Numbered from the stretch's first letter, positions 3,109 to 26,184 are shown. The stretch is DNA of 26,380 nt from a virus (IMGVR_UViG_3300021963_000032), one strand, 5' to 3'. Made by a program: numbers and translations. Notes: generated from the letters alone by a model not told the origin.

Positions 3109-5487
3109 ATGGCCGAAAGAATAGTATCACCAGGAGTATTTACAAACGAGAAAGACCTTTCGTTTTTGCCTGCAGGAATTGCAGCAATTGGAGCAGCGAT
3201 CGTTGGACCAACAACTAAAGGACCTGCGTTTGTACCTACAGTGGTAAACAACTTTAATGACTTTATCGCGAAGTTTGGTGGTTTGAGCGAAGACACTTAT
3301 GTACCTTACGCAGTTAAGAGTTACCTAAACAGCGCCGCTACGGTGACTGTTGTGCGTGTTCTTACATCTGGAGGATATAATGCAAAATCAGTACAAATTA
3401 TTTACTCAGGTTCTCTTGGGTTTAAATTAGTTGGTGTAATTTTACCATCTACTGCAATTGGCTTCTCAACTGGAAACGGATTCGAAAAATCAGCATTTAC
3501 TGGTTCAATCAGTGTAACTGGATCCAAAGGATTCATCTTATCAGGATCAGGAGTATCAACTCAAGTATTAACAGCATCAGCTAACCCAGCAAGTGTAGAT
3601 TCATTTACAAACGTACTAGGTACATCAGTAAAAGGAACTAAGAAAGGATATGTGTACACGTACGCTAGCGACTTCTTAAGCTCTAATGCTGGTTTATCAG
3701 GATCTGTCTTCTTTGAGACTGGATCAACATCAGCACTTGTAGACTTGTCTAGTTCAATTTATGGAAACTATGCACCAGCTGCAACACCATACATTACATC
3801 ACAAATTATTGGGGGTTCTAAACTTCAATTATTTAAAGTAGTGTCTTTGGCAGATGGAACAGACACAAACACTGCATACAAAATTAGTATTGTCAACACA
3901 ACTATCCCAGGAACAGATCCAGGATCAGACTATGGTTCATTTACTCTATTGGTGCGTGAATACGGTGACACAGACCAAAGACCAGTTGTTCTTGAGTCTT
4001 ACACTAACTTGAACTTAGACCCAGATTCTTCTAACTACATCACAAGACGAATTGGAGATAGAAGCTTCTCAGTAGATGCAGCAGGTGTTGTATCAATTAA
4101 TGGAGATTATAGAAACGTATCAAAATACATCCGTATCGAGGTAGCTGACGACGTTAAGAACAAAGCAATCAGTGCAAATGTTAAACCATTTGGATATGAG
4201 GCTTTGGTACAACCAATCTCTTCAAGCTACACAATGCCAACAGCTTCTATAGTTAGCCAATTAACTCAAATCAATGGTTCTTATAGTAAGAAAGCATACT
4301 ACGGATGGGATTATGCATCTAATGACAACGTTAACTTCTTGAAACCTTTAGCAAAAGGAACAGTACAATTAGGAAACGGATTCAACTTAGATGAGTGTTT
4401 CTTACACCCAAGTGCATCTAAAGCAAACGCCAACTCTACATTCGTAGGAGGATCAAGTGTATCAGCTTCAGTCTTTGTAGGACTAGATGTAAATAACGTA
4501 TTGAAATTCAACATACCATTACAAGGTGGTTTTGATGGAATGGATCCAGCAATACCTAAGTATGTAGGTTCAGCTATTAGACCAAACAACCTATTTGGTA
4601 TGGATTGTACAAATGCAAATACGCCAGGTGGAGCAGCTTATGTAAAAGCCCTTAACACAATCGCAAATGCTGACGAGTATGATATCAACCTAATCGTTAC
4701 TCCAGGAGCAACAATCAAAGATCACGCAGCGATTATCAACAAATCAATCGAAGTAGCTGAAGATCGTGGAGATGCATTTGTATTAGCAGATCCAATCGTA
4801 CAAGGAGGATCAGTAGCAGCAGCAGTAGCAGCAGTAGTAGATTCAGGAATTGATTCAAACTACGTAGGTACTTACTGGCCATGGGTTAAAATCATCGATA
4901 CAGATAAAAACAAACCGGTATGGGTTCCACCAAGTGTAATCGTACCACGTGTAATGGCATACAACGATTCAGTAGCATACGAATGGTTTGCACCAGCAGG
5001 TCTAAATCGTGGAGGTGTATCTGAAGCAGTAGACGTAGAGTTGAGATTGAACCAAGCACAACGTAATGACCTTTATGAAAATAAAGTAAATGCGATTGCA
5101 ACATTCCCTAACCAAGGAGTATGTATCTGGGGTCAGAAAACACTACAAGCTAAACCATCAGCACTAGATAGAATCAACGTACGTCGTTTGATGATTACAT
5201 TGAAAAAATTCATCGCATCTTCAAGCCGTTACTTAGTGTTCGAAAACAACACAACAGCGACTCGTCAAAGATTCTTGAACATTGTAACACCATACTTAGA
5301 GACTGTAAAATCTCGTCAAGGATTGTATGCTTTCCGTGTAATCATGGATGAGACAAACAACACACCTGACGTAATCGACAGAAACATCATGTACGGTCAG
5401 ATCTACTTACAACCAGCTAAAGCAGCAGAATTTATCGTATTAGACTTTAACATTCTTCCTACTGGAGCAACTTTTGATAACGCTTAA
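3109..5487 (+). CDS. Contractile tail sheath protein (T4 gp18-like)
   Basis: N-terminal SPGVFTNEKDLS, IVGPTTKGPAFVP; C-terminal YWPW, WFAPAGLNRG, WGQKTLQ, LDRINVRRL, IYLQPAKAAEFIVLDF. Confidence 0.95.
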   Translation: MAERIVSPGVFTNEKDLSFLPAGIAAIGAAIVGPTTKGPAFVPTVVNNFNDFIAKFGGLSEDTYVPYAVKSYLNSAATVTVVRVLTSGGYNAKSVQIIYSGSLGFKLVGVILPSTAIGFSTGNGFEKSAFTGSISVTGSKGFILSGSGVSTQVLTASANPASVDSFTNVLGTSVKGTKKGYVYTYASDFLSSNAGLSGSVFFETGSTSALVDLSSSIYGNYAPAATPYITSQIIGGSKLQLFKVVSLADGTDTNTAYKISIVNTTIPGTDPGSDYGSFTLLVREYGDTDQRPVVLESYTNLNLDPDSSNYITRRIGDRSFSVDAAGVVSINGDYRNVSKYIRIEVADDVKNKAISANVKPFGYEALVQPISSSYTMPTASIVSQLTQINGSYSKKAYYGWDYASNDNVNFLKPLAKGTVQLGNGFNLDECFLHPSASKANANSTFVGGSSVSASVFVGLDVNNVLKFNIPLQGGFDGMDPAIPKYVGSAIRPNNLFGMDCTNANTPGGAAYVKALNTIANADEYDINLIVTPGATIKDHAAIINKSIEVAEDRGDAFVLADPIVQGGSVAAAVAAVVDSGIDSNYVGTYWPWVKIIDTDKNKPVWVPPSVIVPRVMAYNDSVAYEWFAPAGLNRGGVSEAVDVELRLNQAQRNDLYENKVNAIATFPNQGVCIWGQKTLQAKPSALDRINVRRLMITLKKFIASSSRYLVFENNTTATRQRFLNIVTPYLETVKSRQGLYAFRVIMDETNNTPDVIDRNIMYGQIYLQPAKAAEFIVLDFNILPTGATFDNA

Positions 5488-5506: not shown

Positions 5507-5995
5507 ATGGCAAATTTAATTGAAAACAACGAAATCTTCTACACACCTTACGAACCTAAGGTACAGAATAGATTCATCTTATCTGTAGAAGGCATCCCAG
5601 CTTTCTTATGTAAGAAAGTGTCTCGTCCAGGTATTGAGTGTGGAGAAGTAGTATTAGACCACATTAACATCATCCGCAAGATGAAAGGAAAATGTAAGTG
5701 GAACGATATCACAATCTCTATGTACGACGCAATCGTACCATCAGGAGCACAATCAGTAATGGAGTGGGTACGTGTATCTCACGAGTCAGTAACGGGCCGT
5801 GACGGATATGCAGATTTCTACAAAAGAGATTTCGATATCTTCGTACTTGGACCAGTAGGTGATAAAGTAGAAAACTGGAAAGTGAAAGGTGCATATATCA
5901 AAACTGCAACGTTTGGAGATATGGACTGGTCAACAGAAACTCCGGTTGAGATTTCTTTAACACTAGGAGTTGACTACTGTGTATTAGAATACTAA
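5507..5995 (+). CDS. Tail tube protein (T4 gp19-like)
   Basis: 162 aa directly after sheath; EPKVQNRF, KWNDITISMYD, VMEW, YKRD, GPVGDKVENW, FGDMDW. Confidence 0.9.
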   Translation: MANLIENNEIFYTPYEPKVQNRFILSVEGIPAFLCKKVSRPGIECGEVVLDHINIIRKMKGKCKWNDITISMYDAIVPSGAQSVMEWVRVSHESVTGRDGYADFYKRDFDIFVLGPVGDKVENWKVKGAYIKTATFGDMDWSTETPVEISLTLGVDYCVLEY

Positions 5996-14452: not shown

Positions 14453-15127
14453 ATGTCAGTAAGATCCAAAAAGAAAAATAGATCAACAAACATAAGCAGC
14501 TTCTCTGCGAGAAAGAAAACACGTACGCATTTGTTTACAAAGGGTGGTGAGTTTAGTTTGGATGGTGTTGAATATATTGGTGAATACTACATAGTAGGTG
14601 ATTCTGCTTTTACTGGCCCAGCCCCAGTAGACATCACTGAAGACGTAAACCAAATTGGAGATCCAGATCTTGTTAATCCAAAAATAAGATTGGTAACACC
14701 TAAAGCTGCGGAAGGTGGAAAGCTTCTAAGAAGAGTTTACCTAGAGCAATATCAATACGACTACGAGAGAATAAAGAAGTTTCAAGTGGATGTTTTAGAT
14801 TTCATAGACCCAGTTCCATATCTATATGAACCCAAAGACTCAGCATATGAAGCAGGAGAGGACCGAAGATACTTTGTACAGAAGAGAGGAAACGACGAAA
14901 GCTATGCTATTGAAATTGATAGCAATCAATGGGAGATGTTAGGTCAATATAAAGGGATTGATGACGGCTTGTATGCATTCACGAGTGTGGTATGGAGGTT
15001 AGTAGGATCTTATGATATCCTAGCTCAACAAAATGAGCTAGCTTTATTCAAAGCTCAAAGAGTAATTCCAAGCATCCTTTACTCAGTAAAAAGCTTCACC
15101 GAATACGCTCGCTTTACTAAATTTTGA
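14453..15127 (+). CDS. Hypothetical protein, probably baseplate-associated
   Basis: 224 aa, LFTKGGEF..DGVEYIGEYY, RRYFVQKR; last gene of tail run. Confidence 0.55.
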   Translation: MSVRSKKKNRSTNISSFSARKKTRTHLFTKGGEFSLDGVEYIGEYYIVGDSAFTGPAPVDITEDVNQIGDPDLVNPKIRLVTPKAAEGGKLLRRVYLEQYQYDYERIKKFQVDVLDFIDPVPYLYEPKDSAYEAGEDRRYFVQKRGNDESYAIEIDSNQWEMLGQYKGIDDGLYAFTSVVWRLVGSYDILAQQNELALFKAQRVIPSILYSVKSFTEYARFTKF

Positions 15128-15157: not shown

Positions 15158-16462
15158 ATGATTATAGACAGCATACAGCAATTAGAATCTTTACGTGATA
15201 GAAGCCTATTCGTATATCCAGTATTGCAGGATAGTAGACGACATAGGGTTGAGAGTGAAATTATTGCTCTAATCTTGATCGACACAAAAACACACCAAAC
15301 ATTTTCAGTAAGCAAGAATCACCCAGATGGTTTGTTCAAAGTAAAAGACTTCACATTCCTTGATGACTCTAAAATCTACAGCTACGACACAATCCTATTT
15401 AAGTATGCAGGATATGAAACTGATCGATTTGTAGATGTTCAGATGCAATATTACCTAAAGACTAATAAGAGTTGTAACTTCGAAACACCAGGAATTATAA
15501 ACCACTATGCCCGATACCTATCCGATTGTGGAGTGTTAGGATCGCTAGTGAGTTTACCTAAACACGAAAGCATTGCTTACAACCTATTCACTCGAATCTT
15601 TATTGAAGAGCCACAACCAGGATTAATGTTCTATCAACACAAGATGGTCAGCTCTTTCTTTATGATAGAGAAAAATGGAATACAAGTAAACGACAATCTC
15701 TTTACTGAAAGGTTTGGTAAAAGCTTTTCGAGAGTAGAGGATAGGAGTTATACACAATACAATTATTACACAACTACGGGACGTCCGAGTAATAGGTTTG
15801 ATGGAATCAACTTTGCAGCTCTGAATAAAGAGGATGGTACGAGAGAGTGTTTTGAAAGTAGGTTTGAAGATGGACAGCTTTTTGAGATTGACTTCAATGC
15901 GTATCACCCTCGCTTGATTGCATCACTCGTTGGGTATGACTTCGGCACAGACGATGTATACGAGCATTTAGCCAAGCATTACAACAACACAGACACTCCA
16001 ACCAAAGCACAGATAAGTTCAGCAAAAGAAGCTACATTCCGTCAGATATACGGAGGAATTAGTAAGCAGTATATGCATGTTCCATTCTTCAAAGCAGCAA
16101 GCAACCTTGCAAGATCGTTGTGGATTTTTGGAAACGAGCATGGGTATATAGAGAGTCCAATATCAGGTAGAAAGCTGATATTAGCCAATTATCAGGATAT
16201 AACCGAATACACTCTATTCAACTATTTTATTCAGATGTACGAGACTGAGTTCAATGTACTTATGCTCGAACCTATACTACTCAGTTTGATCGGTCAAAAA
16301 ACAAAACCAGTATTATACACCTACGATAGTATCTTATTTGATGTGCCAAAGCGTGAGGTAGACTATTTATTAGGGACAGTGATTCCGAGAGCAATCGATG
16401 TTACAAAGTTTCCTATAAAGACTAAAGCTGGATCCAATCTAGCCAATCTAGCCGTTTTCTAA
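15158..16462 (+). CDS. polA: Compact family-A DNA polymerase-like protein (vestigial 3'-5' exo, thumb largely missing)
   Basis: IEKNGIQVN, TTTGRPSN, motif A EIDFNAYHPR, motif B AKEATFRQIYGG, NYFIQ, motif C YTYDSILFD; only 434 aa. Confidence 0.85.
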   Translation: MIIDSIQQLESLRDRSLFVYPVLQDSRRHRVESEIIALILIDTKTHQTFSVSKNHPDGLFKVKDFTFLDDSKIYSYDTILFKYAGYETDRFVDVQMQYYLKTNKSCNFETPGIINHYARYLSDCGVLGSLVSLPKHESIAYNLFTRIFIEEPQPGLMFYQHKMVSSFFMIEKNGIQVNDNLFTERFGKSFSRVEDRSYTQYNYYTTTGRPSNRFDGINFAALNKEDGTRECFESRFEDGQLFEIDFNAYHPRLIASLVGYDFGTDDVYEHLAKHYNNTDTPTKAQISSAKEATFRQIYGGISKQYMHVPFFKAASNLARSLWIFGNEHGYIESPISGRKLILANYQDITEYTLFNYFIQMYETEFNVLMLEPILLSLIGQKTKPVLYTYDSILFDVPKREVDYLLGTVIPRAIDVTKFPIKTKAGSNLANLAVF

Positions 16463-16495: not shown

Positions 16496-16738
16496 ATGAA
16501 AAAGGCGTCTATAAAAGACTATATACGAGAAGAGATTGAAGCAATTCTTCGTGAGAAGAAAATCAAGTTCAAACGTAAGGCTTCAATCAAAGAAGAGGAG
16601 TCTTCAGCAAATGCTCAAGATGATCAAAAGATAGCTCAATTGCAAGCTCAAAAGGCTGACAAGGAAAAGCAGAAAGCTGGGATGAATGGAGAGATTGCTA
16701 AATTAAAGCAACAAATAGACGCGATTGAGAAAAAATAA
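16496..16738 (+). CDS. Hypothetical coiled-coil protein (80 aa), possibly head-packaged
   Basis: IREEIEAILRE...IKEEE N-terminus then K/Q-rich coil; TAATG overlap with next gene. Confidence 0.6.
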   Translation: MKKASIKDYIREEIEAILREKKIKFKRKASIKEEESSANAQDDQKIAQLQAQKADKEKQKAGMNGEIAKLKQQIDAIEKK

Positions 16739-17118
16739 TGAGACCACAATTACTTTGCACATTCACATACATTGACAAATTACCCTACTGCCTAGGAGAG
16801 GTTTACAAAACCTATTCAGTAGAGGCGGTATCAAATGTCAAATGTTATTCTTACGTTGAGGAAACCAACAACGTGGTGTGTGTGTATAATGTCGAAGGTA
16901 GTACAAAACGAATGAAGGATACTATCTCGATCAATAGAAAAAAAGAAACAAATACATTTTATAGTATAAATGCTCTTAACTCGTTAATCCGAAGCCTCAA
17001 CAATGGAGTTTTGGATAAAACATTTAGAGTAGACTGGACCCACTACCAGGACATGCTTTTGCTGTCAGACAGTGAATACAATTGCAGAGCAATTAAAATA
17101 GAAGAGCTTTCGCGTTAA
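16738..17118 (+). CDS. Hypothetical protein (126 aa) of the replication cluster
   Basis: QLLCTF, TISINRKKETNTFYSINALN, NNGVLDK; between PolA-like gene and SSB. Confidence 0.7.
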   Translation: MRPQLLCTFTYIDKLPYCLGEVYKTYSVEAVSNVKCYSYVEETNNVVCVYNVEGSTKRMKDTISINRKKETNTFYSINALNSLIRSLNNGVLDKTFRVDWTHYQDMLLLSDSEYNCRAIKIEELSR

Positions 17119-17222: not shown

Positions 17223-17999
17223 ATGGCAATCAATTTAGATGCGATCAAAGCGAAGTTGCAACAAATGCAACAATCAACGGGAGGTGGAACCAAGTCAAGC
17301 GACTTCATGTGGAAACCACCAGTAGGAAAATCTCAAGTACGTATCGTACCCTACGCATTCGACAAAAACAATCCTTTCTTGGAATTGTACTTTCATTACG
17401 AAATTGGAAAACGTACAATGGTATCTCCGATCTCTTTTGGACGTCCTGATCCAGTAGTAGAGTTTGCAGAGAAATTAAAAAAATCTGGAGACAAAGATGA
17501 CTGGAAATTAGGAAAGAAAATTGAACCTAAGTTCCGTGTATACGCTCCAGTAATCGTTCGTGGTGCTGAGCACGAAGGTGTTAAGTTTTGGTCTTTTGGG
17601 AAACAAATTTACACAGAGTTGTTATCTGTAATTGCAGATCCGGATTACGGAGACATTACAGATTTGATGAATGGTCGTGACGTAACTGTAGAGCACATCG
17701 CTGCAGAGAAAGAAGGAGCATTCCCATCATTCACAGTTCGTGTTAAGCCTAACACAACTCCAGCTACAACTGAGAAAGATGTTGCTGAGATGATTGTATC
17801 AAATCAAAAAGAGATCACTGAGTTGTTCACAGAACCAACTTATGACGAGATGACAGAAGTTCTAGCTAAATGGTTAGATCCATCAACAGATTCAGACGCT
17901 CAAGGTACAAAGCCTGCAAGCAAACCAATCTCTGGTGCGACTACTGCTACTAGCACGGACGACATTTCATCAGCATTCGATTCATTATTTAATTCATAG
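17223..17999 (+). CDS. ssb: Single-stranded DNA-binding protein (T4 gp32-like)
   Basis: WKPPVG..VRIVP, YFHY, GVKFWSFGKQIY, DYGDITD..GRD, acidic-hydrophobic tail DDISSAFDSLFNS; directly before RecA. Confidence 0.8.
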   Translation: MAINLDAIKAKLQQMQQSTGGGTKSSDFMWKPPVGKSQVRIVPYAFDKNNPFLELYFHYEIGKRTMVSPISFGRPDPVVEFAEKLKKSGDKDDWKLGKKIEPKFRVYAPVIVRGAEHEGVKFWSFGKQIYTELLSVIADPDYGDITDLMNGRDVTVEHIAAEKEGAFPSFTVRVKPNTTPATTEKDVAEMIVSNQKEITELFTEPTYDEMTEVLAKWLDPSTDSDAQGTKPASKPISGATTATSTDDISSAFDSLFNS

Positions 18000-18004
18000 A
18001 AAGT

Positions 18005-19150
18005 ATGGCAAAGTCTACGAAGACACCCGATGAAATATCGGGAAGGGACGAATTGGCTTCTGTATTAGCAGATAGTCTAAATAAAAAGTTTAAAGACTTC
18101 AAGGCTGCGCACTTCTTGACCGGAGAGGAAGATACTCCAACAGATTTAACAGAGTGGGTCGGTACCGGCTCCTCTCTGTTAGACTTGGCAATCTCTAACA
18201 GACCTAACGGTGGATTTCCAGTTGGTAGGATTGTAGAGTTGCAGGGAATGGAGGCATCAGGAAAGAGTTTGATTGTAGCTCACACATTAGCAAATACTCA
18301 GAAGAAAGGTGGACTTGCAGTCTACATCGATACTGAGAACGCACTAAGTGAGGAGTTCTTGACGGCTGTAGGAGTTGATGTGGCAAACATGCTATATGTT
18401 CCTTTGGAAACTATTGAGGATGCATTCGATGCTGTGGAGAGTATTATCGAAACAGTTCGTAAGAGTTCAAAAGATAGACTAGTTACAATTGCATTAGATT
18501 CGGTATCGGCAGCTACTACAAAGGTAGAACAAGATGCTGACTATGAGAAAGATGGTTGGGCAACTACAAAAGCTATCTTGATGTCAAAAGCGATGCGTAA
18601 GATTACAAACATTATTGCAAAACAAAGAGTACTTCTTTTATGTACATCTCAGTTGCGTGAAAAGATGGGAGTAATGTTCGGAGACAAGTATACAACATCA
18701 GGAGGTAAAGCTTTAGGTTTCCATGCAAGCTGTCGAATTAGATTAAAGGGAGTTGGTAAATTGAAAAGCGGATCAGGTAAGACTGAACAGATTATTGGAG
18801 TTCAAACAGAAGCTCAGGTAATCAAGAATCGTATGGGTCCTCCATTCAAGAAAGCAACTTTTGATATCTACTTTAACTCAGGAATCGACGACTACAATAG
18901 CTGGTTGACAATGATGAAGGATTACGGAATCATCAAAGCTTCAGGTGCTTGGTATACATTAGTAAACGAAGAGACTGGAGAAGAGGTTAAGTTCCAATCA
19001 AAGGAGTGGAGAGGAATGTTAGATTCAGATCCAGAGTTAAAACAATATTGTTACAACAAAGTCTGCAACATCTACGTTATGAAATATAAAGATCAAAACA
19101 GTATTGATCCCGATGATGTTTCAGTAGATGAAGGAGAACTAGAAGATTAA
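18005..19150 (+). CDS. recA: RecA/UvsX-like recombinase
   Basis: GGFPVGRIVELQGMEASGKS (Walker A), YIDTENA, LDSV, SQLREKMGVMFGD..TTSGGKALGFHASCRIRL, KNR, GAWY. Confidence 0.95.
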   Translation: MAKSTKTPDEISGRDELASVLADSLNKKFKDFKAAHFLTGEEDTPTDLTEWVGTGSSLLDLAISNRPNGGFPVGRIVELQGMEASGKSLIVAHTLANTQKKGGLAVYIDTENALSEEFLTAVGVDVANMLYVPLETIEDAFDAVESIIETVRKSSKDRLVTIALDSVSAATTKVEQDADYEKDGWATTKAILMSKAMRKITNIIAKQRVLLLCTSQLREKMGVMFGDKYTTSGGKALGFHASCRIRLKGVGKLKSGSGKTEQIIGVQTEAQVIKNRMGPPFKKATFDIYFNSGIDDYNSWLTMMKDYGIIKASGAWYTLVNEETGEEVKFQSKEWRGMLDSDPELKQYCYNKVCNIYVMKYKDQNSIDPDDVSVDEGELED

Positions 19151-19154
19151 AGTT

Positions 19155-20207
19155 ATGAATAAAAAGTATCTAGCATACTTTAATGAAGTCAAACTTAAAG
19201 GTGAAGAGGCAGTCAACAGCGATACAAAGAATTCTCGCGTATTAGTTGTTGACGGTCTCAACACATTCATTAGAGCATATGCAGCAAGTCCAACAACAAA
19301 CGTCAATGGTGAACACGTAGGAGGTTTATCGGGATTTCTACTAAGCGTAGGTCATGCTATTAAAGCAATCAATCCAACACGAGTAGTCGTTGTGTTTGAT
19401 GGTAAGGATGGTTCTGCAAAGCGTAAGGCGTTATATCCAGACTACAAAGCGAATCGAAAGTTTAAGATAAGATTGAACAGAGCCGAGACCGTAGACAAAG
19501 AGGATAACCAATTGCAACAACTAATGAGGTTGATAGAGTATTTGGAGATACTACCAATAACAGTCATCGTTTCAGATGGAGTTGAAGCAGATGACGTTAT
19601 AGCTTATATTGGGGAAGACTACTTGAAAGAAAGAGAATCTCAAGTATTTATAATGTCCTCAGACAAGGATTTTTTACAACTTGTCGATGAGCGTATTCAT
19701 ATCTGGAGTCCAACTAAAAAGCAGCTTTATTACACAGACGACGTGTATCAGCAGTATGGAATCATACCAAAGAACTTTGCACTATTCCGTGCATTGATTG
19801 GAGACGATAGTGATAACATTCCAGGAGTACCAGGATTAGGAGCTAAGACAATAGTCAGCAAGTTTCCGAAAATGAATGGAACAGATGTACTTACAGTTGA
19901 TGAGTTCGTTGAGTATGCAAAGGAATTGCAAGCAGCGAATCCAAAGTCAAAGTTATACACTCGTGTGGTTGAAGCAGAGGCAGACATTAGATTGTTTCAC
20001 CAAATCATGCAACTTTCAGAAAGTGGCATTCCAGGACACACAAAGTTAAGAATCATTGACAACTTACAGACAAAGGTAGATAAGTTGGCTAAACTCAAAT
20101 TCCATACAATGTTAATCGAAGATGGAATGACAAATGCAATCCGCAACGTAGAGATCTGGTTAAAAGAAATAACTCAAAAATTAGATCAATTTACCTTGCA
20201 AGATTAA
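19155..20207 (+). CDS. Stand-alone 5'-3' exonuclease / flap endonuclease (Pol I N-terminal domain, T4 RNase H-like)
   Basis: VVDGLNTFIR, VVVFDG, YPDYKANR, VEADDVIA, SSDKDFLQL, GDDSDNIPGVPGLGAKT. Confidence 0.93.
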   Translation: MNKKYLAYFNEVKLKGEEAVNSDTKNSRVLVVDGLNTFIRAYAASPTTNVNGEHVGGLSGFLLSVGHAIKAINPTRVVVVFDGKDGSAKRKALYPDYKANRKFKIRLNRAETVDKEDNQLQQLMRLIEYLEILPITVIVSDGVEADDVIAYIGEDYLKERESQVFIMSSDKDFLQLVDERIHIWSPTKKQLYYTDDVYQQYGIIPKNFALFRALIGDDSDNIPGVPGLGAKTIVSKFPKMNGTDVLTVDEFVEYAKELQAANPKSKLYTRVVEAEADIRLFHQIMQLSESGIPGHTKLRIIDNLQTKVDKLAKLKFHTMLIEDGMTNAIRNVEIWLKEITQKLDQFTLQD

Positions 20208-20230: not shown

Positions 20231-21601
20231 ATGCAAGAACAAGATACATTACAGTTTTATGGTACTGGGTTTCAGAATAAGGTACTTGCTGTCCTAATTA
20301 AGGACAGAACCTTTCTGCAACAGATTCATGATATAATCGATCCCAAGTACTTCTCTTCTGAGTCAGCTCAGTGGATAGCTAGTACTGTTTTGAAATACTT
20401 CACACAATATAAAACCCCACCAACCTTAGAAGCACTTAAAGTGTATCTTGATGAGGTGGATGTAGATTTGTTAAAAACCACGGTAGTAGAAAACCTTAAA
20501 GAGGTTATACGTTACGCAGATTCAACAGACTTAGATTTCACAAAAGATAGAACATTAGAGTTCTGTAAAAACCAAAAGATCAAAGCAGCAATCCTCGAAT
20601 CGGTACAACTATTACAAGTTGGGAAGTATGATGACATTAAAGTAGCTATCGATGAAGCTATGAAGGCTGGTACAGATAGAAATGTCGGACATGAGTACCT
20701 AGAAGATATAGCAGCTCGCTTCGTAGAAAATAAACGAAACACAATTCCAACACCATGGGACGTTATCAATGAGATAATGGATGGTGGTCTAGGAAGTGGA
20801 GAGATGGGAGTCTTTGTAGCACCAGCTGGTATTGGTAAGTCAATGGCATTGGTGAACATAGCAGCAGGTGCAGTGAAGGCAGGATTAAATGTAGTGTACT
20901 ACAGTTTGGAGCTTTCTGAGACTTATGTAGGAGCTCGATTCGACTCACACTACACCGGCATACCAAATCAGGATTTGAAATTTCATCAAGAAGAGGTTAT
21001 TGAAAAGTTAGAGAAACTTAAAGGTCGATTGATTATAAAGTACTATCCAACTAAGACGGCCACTGTAACGATGCTCGCTGCTCACTTAGATAAGTGTGCA
21101 ATGCAGGGCTTCAAACCTGATCTGGTTATTGTCGATTACGCCGATCTATTAAGAGATACAAGCTCAAAGGGTTCAGTTAGAAACGACATCATGCTAGGAA
21201 ACATTTACGAGGATTTGAGAGGTATGGCTGGAACTTACCAAATTCCAGTGTATACTGCATCTCAAGCAAACCGTTCAGCTTTGGAAGAGGATATCATTGA
21301 AGCAGATAAGATTGCAGAATCTTATTCAAAGGTGATGGTTGCTGACTTTGTTGTATCACTATCTCGTAAGGTAGCTGACAAGATAAGTGGAACTGGAAGG
21401 TGGCACATTATCAAGAACCGTTTCGGACCGGATGGATTAACATTCCCAAGTAAGATGAATATGGCTGTATCAAAAATAGACATCTACGCTGAGAATACAA
21501 TCCTAGGGAAGGAAGCAAAAGGGTTAATGCAGAACGACTCGGAAGTAGTCAGAAAAGCTTTAGCAAATAAATTTTCAGAATTAAACAGTTTTTCAAAGTA
21601 A
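20231..21601 (+). CDS. dnaB: Replicative DNA helicase (DnaB / T4 gp41-like)
   Basis: Walker A APAGIGKS, YSLELSE, VIVDYADLL, TASQANR, IAESYSK, KNRFGPDG. Confidence 0.93.
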   Translation: MQEQDTLQFYGTGFQNKVLAVLIKDRTFLQQIHDIIDPKYFSSESAQWIASTVLKYFTQYKTPPTLEALKVYLDEVDVDLLKTTVVENLKEVIRYADSTDLDFTKDRTLEFCKNQKIKAAILESVQLLQVGKYDDIKVAIDEAMKAGTDRNVGHEYLEDIAARFVENKRNTIPTPWDVINEIMDGGLGSGEMGVFVAPAGIGKSMALVNIAAGAVKAGLNVVYYSLELSETYVGARFDSHYTGIPNQDLKFHQEEVIEKLEKLKGRLIIKYYPTKTATVTMLAAHLDKCAMQGFKPDLVIVDYADLLRDTSSKGSVRNDIMLGNIYEDLRGMAGTYQIPVYTASQANRSALEEDIIEADKIAESYSKVMVADFVVSLSRKVADKISGTGRWHIIKNRFGPDGLTFPSKMNMAVSKIDIYAENTILGKEAKGLMQNDSEVVRKALANKFSELNSFSK

Positions 21602-21664: not shown

Positions 21665-23521
21665 ATGACACTTTCGAATGAAATCCTAAGCGATATCACT
21701 GTCTTCATGAAGTACGCTAAGTACCTTCCAGAATTGCAAAGACGTGAAACTTGGCAAGAACTAGTAACACGTAACAAAGAAATGCACATCAAGAAGTACC
21801 CAGCACTTGCTGAAGAAATTGAAAAAGCTTACGAGTATGTCTACAACAAAAAGGTATTACCTTCTATGCGATCTATGCAGTTCGCAGGTAAACCAATCGA
21901 GATCTCACCTAACCGAATCTACAACTGTGCCTACTTACCAATCGACGATGTACGTGCATTTGGTGAAGCAATGTTCTTACTTTTAGGAGGAACTGGAGTT
22001 GGGTACTCAGTACAACAACACCACGTAGATAGTCTACCTGAGATCAGAAAACCAAACCTAAACAGAAAGCGTCGCTACTTAATTGCTGACTCTATTGAAG
22101 GATGGGCAGATGCAGTAAAGGTTCAAATTAAATCCTACTTCACTGGTGGATCTTCTTACAACTTTGATTTCTCTGACATTCGTGCAAAGGGTGCAAGATT
22201 GGTTACGTCGGGAGGAAAAGCTCCAGGACCTCAACCGTTGAAAGAGTGTTTGATGAAACTTCAAGGTATCTTAGATGCAAAAGAGGATGGAGATAAACTA
22301 TCTTCAATTGAAGTACACGATATGGTATGTCACATTGCTGATGCAGTATTGGCAGGTGGTATTCGTAGAGCAGCTCTTATCAGCTTATTCAGTGCTGACG
22401 ATAATGAGATGATTTCTTGTAAGTCAGGAAACTGGTGGGAAAACAATCCACAAAGAGGTCGCGCTAATAACTCAGCTGTATTGATGAGACACAAGTTAAC
22501 ACAAGAGTTCTTCTTTGATATTTGGAAGCGTGTTGAATTATCAGGAGCAGGAGAGCCAGGAATCTATCTTACAAATGACAAAGATTGGGGAACGAATCCA
22601 TGTTGCGAGATTGCATTACGTCCATTCCAATTCTGTAACCTATGTGAGGTAAATGTATCGGATATTGAGTCTCAAGAGGATTTTGAAAACCGAGTACGAG
22701 TAGCTTCTTTAATTGGAACACTACAAGCAGGATACACAAACTTCCACTACTTGCGTGACGTTTGGAAACGTACAACAGAGAAGGATGCATTGATTGGAAT
22801 CTCAATGACTGGTATCGGATCAGGTACAGTATTGGGATATGATATGAAAGCAGCAGCGAAGCTTGTTAAGACAGAAAACGAACGTGTAGCAAAATTATTG
22901 GGTATCAATAAGTCAGCTCGTACAACAACCGTTAAGCCAGCTGGAACAACATCACTTACATTAGGTACTTCGTCAGGAATCCATGCATGGCATAACGATT
23001 TCTATGTTCGTCGAATCCGAGTAGGAAAGAACGAAGCAATCTACACATACCTAGCAATCAATCACCCAGAGCTTGTAGAGGATGAATACTTCCGTCCACA
23101 CGATACAGCGGTAATCTCTATTCCACAAAAAGCTCCAGAAGGTGCAATTCTAAGAACAGAGTCTCCATTCCAATTACTAGATCGAATCAAAAAAGTACAC
23201 ATGGAGTGGGTTAAACCAGGACACAGAACGGGTAACAACGCGCACAACGTATCTGCAACAGTTTCGTTGAGAGATGAAGAGTGGGACATGGCTGGTCAAT
23301 GGATGTGGGAAAACAGAGAGCATTACAATGGACTTTCGGTACTACCTTACAATGGAGGTACATACACGCAAGCACCTTTCGAGGATATCACAGAAGAGCA
23401 GTACAACGAGATGATGACTTCTCTGAAGGGTATTGACTTGAGTCGAGTTGTAGAGTTAGATGATTCAACAGACCTCAAAGGAGAGGCAGCTTGTGCAGGT
23501 GGCGCATGTGAAATTGTATAA
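21665..23521 (+). CDS. nrdJ: Class II (adenosylcobalamin-dependent) ribonucleotide reductase
   Basis: RRETW, LPSMR, YNCAY, GTGVGYS, GGIRRAALI, TNPCCEI, FCNL, VKPAGTTS, C-terminal CAGGACE; no beta subunit gene adjacent. Confidence 0.9.
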   Translation: MTLSNEILSDITVFMKYAKYLPELQRRETWQELVTRNKEMHIKKYPALAEEIEKAYEYVYNKKVLPSMRSMQFAGKPIEISPNRIYNCAYLPIDDVRAFGEAMFLLLGGTGVGYSVQQHHVDSLPEIRKPNLNRKRRYLIADSIEGWADAVKVQIKSYFTGGSSYNFDFSDIRAKGARLVTSGGKAPGPQPLKECLMKLQGILDAKEDGDKLSSIEVHDMVCHIADAVLAGGIRRAALISLFSADDNEMISCKSGNWWENNPQRGRANNSAVLMRHKLTQEFFFDIWKRVELSGAGEPGIYLTNDKDWGTNPCCEIALRPFQFCNLCEVNVSDIESQEDFENRVRVASLIGTLQAGYTNFHYLRDVWKRTTEKDALIGISMTGIGSGTVLGYDMKAAAKLVKTENERVAKLLGINKSARTTTVKPAGTTSLTLGTSSGIHAWHNDFYVRRIRVGKNEAIYTYLAINHPELVEDEYFRPHDTAVISIPQKAPEGAILRTESPFQLLDRIKKVHMEWVKPGHRTGNNAHNVSATVSLRDEEWDMAGQWMWENREHYNGLSVLPYNGGTYTQAPFEDITEEQYNEMMTSLKGIDLSRVVELDDSTDLKGEAACAGGACEIV

Positions 23522-25719: not shown

Positions 25720-26184
25720 ATGGCAAAATACAAATCAACAAAATTATTTGATGGGTACTCAGCATGCTTCCGTCAATGGAAAGCAGAAGATACACATTGC
25801 AAGTTCCTACATGGATACGCAGTTTCGTTCAGAGTATGGTTCGAAGGTGAATTAGACCATCGTAACTGGGTATGGGATTTTGGTGGCATGAAACGATCTA
25901 AAACTAAAATTGCAGGAATGTCTCCAAAGGATTATTTTTCATTTTTATTAGACCACACTACAATTGTAGCTATTGATGATCCATACCTAGAAAACTTCAA
26001 ACAGATGGACGAAGATGGTATCATACAGTTACGCATCTTACCAGCCACTGGATGTGAAAAGTTCGCAGAGCATTTGTATTATACAATCAATGCATTCTTA
26101 AAAGAAGAAACTGAAGGACGAGTGAAGGCAGTCAAAGTAGAAGTTTATGAACACGAAAGAAACTCAGCAAGTTATGAAGGATAG
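25720..26184 (+). CDS. queD: 6-carboxy-5,6,7,8-tetrahydropterin synthase / PTPS-family protein (QueD-like)
   Basis: HCKFLHGY, WVWDFGGMK, LDHT, GCEKFAE, VEVYEHERNSASY. Confidence 0.85.
   Translation: MAKYKSTKLFDGYSACFRQWKAEDTHCKFLHGYAVSFRVWFEGELDHRNWVWDFGGMKRSKTKIAGMSPKDYFSFLLDHTTIVAIDDPYLENFKQMDEDGIIQLRILPATGCEKFAEHLYYTINAFLKEETEGRVKAVKVEVYEHERNSASYEG

Follow-up and report, generated by a model that had tools for sequence, protein, structure and literature searches.

The virus sequence IMGVR_UViG_3300021963_000032, a stretch of 26,380 nucleotides referred to in its whole length as the window, is an apparent fragment of a large myovirus-type phage, in which tail sheath, tail tube and baseplate genes are followed by a replication and recombination block. 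This block begins with an open reading frame (ORF) for P0001, a 434-amino-acid (aa) family A DNA polymerase (PolA) with a truncated thumb. The ORF is genuine, with an ATG at 15158 and a stop at 16462, and is followed by 80-aa and 126-aa ORFs and by genes for a gp32-like single-strand DNA-binding protein (SSB), a RecA/UvsX-like recombinase, a flap endonuclease (FEN), a DnaB-like helicase and a ribonucleotide reductase (RNR). The polymerase gene and the features of its product are given below, with conservation counted in an alignment of 253 family members that are 27-93% identical to P0001:

15158..16462 (+): divPolA1-type family A polymerase gene, 434 aa (P0001); matches PHROG 17, DNA polymerase, E 4e-11
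15158..15607 (+): N-terminal 3'-5' exonuclease-like domain, about aa 1-150; fold alignment to the Bst polymerase, no ExoI DxE
15680..15781 (+): thumb stump, aa 175-208; modelled as a loop plus a single short helix
15770..15799 (+): motif 2, TTTGRPSNRF, with R209 equivalent to E. coli R668; R209 in 253/253
15890..15913 (+): motif A, DFNAYHPR, with catalytic D245 and His250 at the steric-gate position; D245 in 253/253, H250 in 252/253
16013..16057 (+): O-helix/motif B with I286, K290, F294 and Y298; K290 in 253/253, F294 in 247/253, Y298 in 252/253
16220..16249 (+): helix Q motif, NYFIQMYETE, with N355, Q359 and E362; N355 in 248/253, Q359 in 252/253, E362 in 253/253
16316..16342 (+): motif C, YTYDSILFD, with catalytic D390 and with Y389 and S391 replacing H881 and E883; Y389 and D390 in 253/253

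The 1659 homologues found for P0001 are nearly all 420-443 aa long and match it end to end, so that the gene boundaries are right and a chance ORF is excluded; a full HMMER scan yielded 954 cluster representatives, and relatives are encoded at 587 IMG/VR loci. P0001 matches no Pfam family at E <= 0.01, PF00476 included, some homologues do carry precomputed PF00476 matches, and PDB sequence searches with P0001 and with the family profile gave no match at E <= 1. Its relationship is apparent from an AlphaFold2 model built on 23 homologues (pLDDT, the predicted local distance difference test, 90.8; predicted template modelling score, pTM, 0.87). The best Foldseek match of this model is the Klenow fragment (E 1.6e-17), and VIA-align places residues 1-432 on residues 302-876 of the Bst large fragment with 411 aligned positions (Z 26.2). 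DNA polymerase I-type enzymes account for all of the best 50 VIA structural matches.

A family with these properties has been described computationally as divPolA1 (Yutin, Tolstoy, Mutz, Wolf, Krupovic and Koonin, 2024, Virol J 21:200; PMC11348598). According to these authors, divPolA1 is encoded by 14 phages with genomes of 155-190 kb, Flavobacterium phage vB_FspM_immuto (hereafter immuto) among them, and combines retained catalytic residues of the palm with a truncated thumb and an inactivated 3'-5' exonuclease domain; the downstream replication genes are conserved, and no genome lacks a second, "regular" DNA polymerase (family A, B or C; PMC11348598). P0001 is 33% identical over residues 155-429 to immuto gp1, one of the named divPolA1 proteins (BLASTP, E 4e-46; tblastn against immuto, E 6e-38), and homologues are also found in Microcystis phage Mel-JY01 and in a 484-kb uncultured phage. 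In addition to this homology, the divPolA1 features seen for P0001 comprise the truncated thumb, the fully conserved D245/D390 pair and the downstream SSB-RecA-FEN-DnaB-RNR genes. Judged from its sequence, P0001 is an intact, selected member of divPolA1, that is, a new metagenomic lineage of an already described family and no new kind of enzyme; its novelty is accordingly lower than the preliminary description of this locus implied. In the literature searched, the name divPolA1 appears only in Yutin et al. (2024) and its preprint. In the accessible part of a reclassification of PolA into 19 clusters (PMC10201439), no cluster seems to match divPolA1, which fits with the failure of P0001 to match PF00476. 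With 1659 proteins and 587 loci, the family extends far beyond the 14 reported genomes. Besides this scale, the family-wide His gate, the YDS motif, the changes at position 286, a co-occurring DnaG-type primase and the 126-aa neighbour are new here; the available text of PMC11348598 makes no mention of a steric-gate His, the loss of R754, the YDS motif or a co-occurring DnaG-type primase.

The truncation of the thumb can be located by comparing motif spacings with those of the actual E. coli polA gene product. Between the Gly of motif 1 and the Arg of motif 2 there are 34 residues in P0001 (G174-R209), in comparison to 123 in E. coli Pol I (Gly of NGVKID to R668), whereas the distance from the motif-2 Arg to the motif A Asp is 35 versus 36 and that from the motif A Asp to the motif C Asp is 144 versus 176. 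The sole helix in the stump comprises 8 residues (179-186, DSSP on the AlphaFold2 model), and the helix between motif 2 and motif A merely 4 (228-231). Across the 253 homologues the gap corresponding to G174-R209 spans 19-41 residues. Thumb-tip deletions in Klenow lower DNA affinity and processivity, and the truncated thumb leads one to expect low processivity of P0001 as well, which would make it a non-processive, distributive enzyme.

Residue equivalences with E. coli Pol I were taken from an anchored pairwise alignment: E710 corresponds to H250, R754 to I286, K758 to K290, F762 to F294, Y766 to Y298, N845 to N355, Q849 to Q359, H881 to Y389, D882 to D390, E883 to S391 and R668 to R209. The steric-gate Glu, the O-helix Arg and the HDE triplet of Pol I-type PolA (PF00476) are therefore all absent from P0001 (H250, I286, Y389-D390-S391), and these replacements hold family-wide: E710 is His, R754 becomes a hydrophobic residue, H881 is Tyr and E883 is Ser or Ala. 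At position 286, at least 240/253 sequences carry one of the residues I, Y, V, L and M (the five commonest classes), none of which is basic, and position 391 is Ser in 223 and Ala in 28 of the 253; Y356 is present in 252. A profile-profile comparison with the regular PolA of relatives gave a short, weak match at motifs 2 and A (probability 2.5%, E 0.019), used solely for placing His250, which it sets opposite the Glu of a DQSSLEPR motif A. A further family-specific residue is the invariant E362 (16241-16243), three residues past Q359, where the pairwise alignment shows no acidic residue in Pol I; E362 might compensate for the lost E883 carboxylate. P0001 thus shares with Klenow and Bst the two-domain fold (Z 26), the motif order, the Asp pair and the K758, F762, Y766, R668, N845 and Q849 equivalents, and differs from them by the E710H, R754I, H881Y and E883S replacements and by a length 171 residues below that of Klenow, the thumb accounting for 89 of these, the fingers for 32 and the N-terminal domain for 47 (220 residues in the N-terminal Klenow part of E. 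coli Pol I versus 173 in P0001). Since the motif changes and the thumb gap are near-invariant over the 253 homologues, the gene is under purifying selection and not decaying, and the altered pocket and the truncation are, by this alignment, fixed features of the family.

The preliminary description, made from the DNA alone, had proposed a thumb-less PolA with a rewired active site, and its observation was confirmed. The 434-aa ORF and every residue it quoted (G174, R209, D245, H250, K290, F294, Y298, N355, Q359 and D390) are correctly located, and the strings IEKNGIQVN, TTGRPSN, DFNAYHPR, YDS, YSYDT and FVDVQMQYYL are present in P0001. The model shows a stump in place of an intact thumb, alignment to E. 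coli Pol I bears out the three substitutions that it had listed (steric-gate Glu to His250, R754 to Ile286, HDE to YDS), and the homologues retain the thumb deletion, the His gate and the catalytic Asp residues.

Because the model aligns from its residue 1 to Bst residue 302 onward, the N-terminal domain of P0001 has an exonuclease fold; the preliminary description had seen remnants of this fold in the two strings of this region and had noted the lack of an ExoI DxE. No conserved D-x-E is found in the exonuclease-like domain across the family alignment. The VDVQM segment of P0001 pairs with the E. coli FDTML motif, and D77 is D in 130/253 and N in 95/253 members. The domain is thus predicted to be catalytically dead. 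Near-invariant residues within it are H29 (244/253), H55 (242/253) and D93 (242/253).

The remaining annotated genes of the window, which has no near-identical DNA counterpart in the phage collection, are listed below; baseplate genes likewise lie in its first part:

3109-5487: tail sheath
5507-5995: tail tube
14453..15127 (+): 224-aa ORF directly upstream of the polymerase gene, kept in 55/80 related loci
16738..17118 (+): 126-aa protein, always just upstream of SSB, in 77/80 related loci
17223..17999 (+): gp32-like single-strand DNA-binding protein; PF08804, E 7.5e-12; PHROG 1192
18005..19150 (+): RecA/UvsX-like recombinase; PF00154, E 2e-56; PHROG 97
19155..20207 (+): Pol I-type 5'-3' exonuclease/flap endonuclease (FEN); PF02739, E 4.9e-35; PF01367 at 37.1 bits, just under the 40-bit cut-off
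20231..21601 (+): DnaB-like replicative helicase; PF03796, E 2.7e-16; PHROG 19, E 6e-81
21665-23521 (+): ribonucleotide reductase with a B12-dependent class II insertion domain, PF21995
23524-23730 (+): small ORF just after RNR; DUF5522, E 3.7e-18
25720-26184 (+): QueD/PTPS-family gene; PF01242, E 1.3e-14

These matches substantiate the SSB, RecA, flap nuclease and helicase genes that had been named in the adjacent cluster. Gene order was counted over 80 IMG/VR loci, and where these are long enough to show the downstream genes, SSB is found in 76, RecA in 66, FEN in 55, DnaB in 40 and RNR in 27; the order of the module is equal in immuto, Mel-JY01 and the IMG/VR loci. The window ORFs that were scanned contain no DnaG domain, as the preliminary description had remarked, but the argument drawn from this absence fails, because the window is a limited stretch and the result says nothing about the phage. 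From the PF21995 domain, the phage seems to encode an RNR of class II; at this position immuto has an NrdF-type beta subunit instead, and the DUF5522 ORF recurs after RNR in 11 related loci. The QueD/PTPS gene recurs in four close relatives and is a hint of a preQ0-type (7-deazaguanine) pathway like that of immuto. The 224-aa upstream ORF has no Pfam or PHROG match, and its counterpart in Mel-JY01 is 219 aa long and overlaps the polymerase start; the idea that it might be a split-off exonuclease was rejected, as it matches no such family and the polymerase already has its own exonuclease-like domain.

The conserved 126-aa protein, too, is without a Pfam or PHROG match. Its recurrent motifs are QLLCTF and INRKKETNTxYSINALN, and its AlphaFold2 model is alpha/beta (pLDDT 92), with no significant Foldseek match in the PDB (best E 0.029); the best VIA matches are ACT/ferredoxin-like, a common type, over residues 1-65 (Z 7). 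An oligonucleotide/oligosaccharide-binding (OB) fold, as in the partner protein MP of the CCPol primases, was not seen in the Foldseek or VIA comparisons. UvsY and gp59, which were considered from the adjacency of gp32 and UvsX, are mainly helical proteins, and either identity was dropped given the alpha/beta model and the missing Pfam and PHROG matches. Inserted genes of 2-3.7 kb can separate the 126-aa gene from divPolA1, so that it tracks SSB, which as a gp32-type protein lies two genes downstream of P0001, more than it tracks the polymerase. Complex prediction for divPolA1 and the 126-aa protein scored 0.00, which gives no verdict either way. The protein is possibly an accessory factor of replication or recombination that has so far escaped recognition.

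Related phages and contigs show which other enzymes accompany divPolA1. A full PolA or PolB was found in eight related records: immuto has a full PolA (778-aa ORF, 191.6 bits), Mel-JY01 and LR756508 each have a PolB, the IMG/VR contigs G001-G003 (75-98% complete, with divPolA1 proteins 47-55% identical to P0001) have regular PolA ORFs of 750-756 aa, G005 has a PolB, and G006, the divPolA1 of which is 72% identical to P0001, has a 749-aa PolA about 20 kb past the RNR side. PolC/DnaE was not found in the five relatives searched. Among close relatives, the regular PolA genes lie at the following positions:

L099, 1477-3717 (-): regular PolA gene
L100, 451-2703 (+): regular PolA gene
L101, 1486-3729 (-): regular PolA gene

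The regular PolAs of relatives keep ExoI (D31/E33), ExoII (N101/D105), ExoIII (Y195/D199), motif B and HDE, with 192 residues separating the Gly of motif 1 from the Arg of motif 2. Intact Exo motifs together with a long thumb indicate that a complete candidate for a proofreading replicase accompanies divPolA1 in the PolA-bearing relatives. In close relatives, the F762/Y526 position in motif B of the regular PolA (RAKxIALAIPYG) is occupied by Leu. A DnaG-type primase ORF of ~310-330 aa is present in 7/8 relatives (immuto, Mel-JY01, LR756508 and G001-G004) and was not found in G005, a 41%-complete record. The evidence for it consists of Toprim_2 matches, most of them below the Pfam cut-off, complemented by DNAG_N in immuto, Mel-JY01 and LR756508. 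No primase of the AEP Prim-Pol type was found in the three relatives searched. That P0001 would be something other than a replicase, as originally supposed, gains weight from the separate full-length polymerase in every sufficiently complete relative, and the published description agrees (PMC11348598). The proposed primase function was weakened by the DnaG-type primase of seven relatives, the whole exonuclease-like domain and the non-OB neighbour. As to the suggested tolerance of rNTPs or use of modified nucleotides, the sequence argues neither for nor against it.

From the fold, motif changes, conservation, synteny and co-occurrence recorded above, catalysis by divPolA1, its processivity and its cellular role can be sketched. 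The retained metal-binding Asp pair, the O-helix Lys, Phe and Tyr and the R668, N845 and Q849 equivalents, which make the contacts to primer terminus and minor groove, indicate template-directed primer extension on duplex DNA; such template- and primer-dependent synthesis would be distributive owing to the lost thumb tip and non-proofreading owing to the dead exonuclease. divPolA1 would accordingly make short DNA stretches within the SSB-RecA/UvsX-FEN-DnaB module, and since this module is fixed and relatives encode a separate replicase and primase, short-patch synthesis is the best fit. The likeliest jobs would be gap filling in Okazaki-fragment maturation together with the Pol I-type FEN, in which case a Pol I function would be split over several genes, or the extension of recombination intermediates; primer processing beside FEN would be plausible as well. 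In contrast to Pol I, P0001 lacks a fused 5'-3' exonuclease domain and has a separate FEN gene 2.7 kb downstream. A second divergent PolA that has lost its thumb and stands beside a regular polymerase is also reported for barbaviruses, namely divPolA2, which has an unrelated N-terminal globular domain, a variable neighbourhood and structural matches to RNA polymerases (PMC11348598); unlike it, divPolA1 has preserved the architecture of Klenow and stands in a fixed replication setting. That divPolA1 is an accessory, distributive, non-proofreading polymerase of the SSB-RecA-FEN-DnaB module, and neither replicase nor primase, is given about an even chance.

Several points weigh against this accessory role. 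The literature search returned no biochemistry on divPolA1, and the regular polymerase and primase are seen in the records of relatives, not in the window's own phage. A plain dNTP-dependent DNA polymerase would not usually lose R754 and E883 or have its steric gate changed, and YDS resembles the HDS of T7-type RNA polymerases, which also have a Ser after the catalytic Asp of motif C. According to PMC11348598, moreover, the place in the conserved replication module belongs to divPolA1 and not to the regular polymerase, and divPolA1 is the partner that stays the same when the regular enzyme is exchanged among families A, B and C. Such constancy could mean a central replication role, and if divPolA1 were the catalytic core of the replisome, drawing its processivity in trans from the DnaB-like helicase, SSB or a small partner, repair or another job would fall to the regular polymerase. 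The position of divPolA1 at the head of the SSB-RecA-FEN-DnaB-RNR module in all 80 loci, and its constancy in relatives whose regular polymerase is either PolA or PolB, are in line with this; a core enzyme with no proofreading site and almost no thumb is nonetheless hard to reconcile with genomes of 130-190 kb, and relatives encode regular PolAs whose thumb region counts 192 residues and whose exonuclease and polymerase motifs are intact, so that a core role is considered unlikely. The pocket might alternatively be that of a primase or a de novo-initiating, possibly ribonucleotide-using polymerase comparable to CCPol-MP, to a minimal T7-like RNA polymerase or to a Pol-alpha-like primer extender. 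For this speak the His in place of the steric-gate Glu in 252/253 members, motif C YDS, the lost R754 and the SSB and helicase encoded nearby; CCPol proves that a PolA fold can prime (PMC7581432), and the 4-residue helix 228-231 of the model is of interest since a shortened last thumb helix has been tied to de novo initiation (Rice, 2023; PMC10061031). P0001 resembles the CCPol-MP and PolA-SSB pairs in being a small, probably non-proofreading enzyme of the PolA fold whose gene lies close to those of a helicase and an ssDNA-binding protein, and its last thumb helix may likewise be short. CCPol-type primases differ, however, in having no exonuclease domain and a truncated N-terminus that binds an OB-fold partner (Bebel et al., 2020; Rice, 2023; PMC7581432, PMC10061031), and they reside on Bacillota mobile elements with serine recombinases; P0001 is encoded on a large myovirus-like phage with a DnaB-type helicase and has a complete exonuclease-like domain; its 126-aa neighbour is not OB-like, and relatives already encode DnaG-type primase ORFs. 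The best 50 structural matches are all DNA polymerases, the R668, N845 and Q849 equivalents are kept, and His is no smaller than Glu, so that the 2' position need not be open. T7-type RNA polymerases share with P0001 a PolA-derived palm but keep the R754-equivalent Arg that is lost here, and their promoter-binding N-terminal domain would find no room in 434 aa. A priming or de novo-initiating enzyme is thus quite unlikely; the same low probability is assigned to its more specific form, a primase-like or "Pol alpha-like" phage PolA that accepts ribonucleotides or initiates de novo and that starts primers or hands them over to an interchangeable replicase, which, if true, would also explain a constant divPolA1 beside a swapping regular polymerase.

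The altered nucleotide pocket and the proximity to RecA would also suit a specialist for damaged or modified DNA, for instance for 7-deazaguanine templates or nucleotides, or for translesion or end-joining synthesis. The QueD/PTPS genes of the window and of four close relatives point in this direction, and in immuto DNA every G is replaced by a 7-deazaguanine derivative (bioRxiv 10.1101/2023.04.13.536721). The same study treats 7-deazaguanine as inserted by a DpdA-family enzyme, a "signature" of such modifications (bioRxiv 10.1101/2023.04.13.536721), which counts against such a specialist; no Pfam TGT (DpdA) domain was found in the five relatives searched. Mel-JY01 has divPolA1 and no PTPS, and the substituted residues point towards the sugar and the triphosphate rather than towards the base's major-groove edge, which leaves a modified-DNA specialist distinctly improbable. 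Extremely improbable is a role in structure or DNA binding for a polymerase-fold protein that is catalytically inert: the replacement of three normally conserved pocket residues (R754, H881 and E883) would agree with it, but both metal-binding Asp residues and the K758, Y766 and F762 equivalents are invariant or nearly so over the 253 members, as is typical of a selected active site. The pocket changes themselves (E710H, the loss of R754, H881Y, E883S and the new invariant E362) are explained neither by the accessory role nor by any of its rivals.

divPolA1 is widespread in aquatic phage metagenomes and is kept beside a normal replicase and primase, so that it must supply a third activity to the phages that carry it. 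As a natural, thumb-minimised PolA with a non-Glu steric gate, it offers a useful means of probing the contributions of thumb and gate to polymerase function, and the family is a possible source of small polymerases with unusual substrate tolerance.

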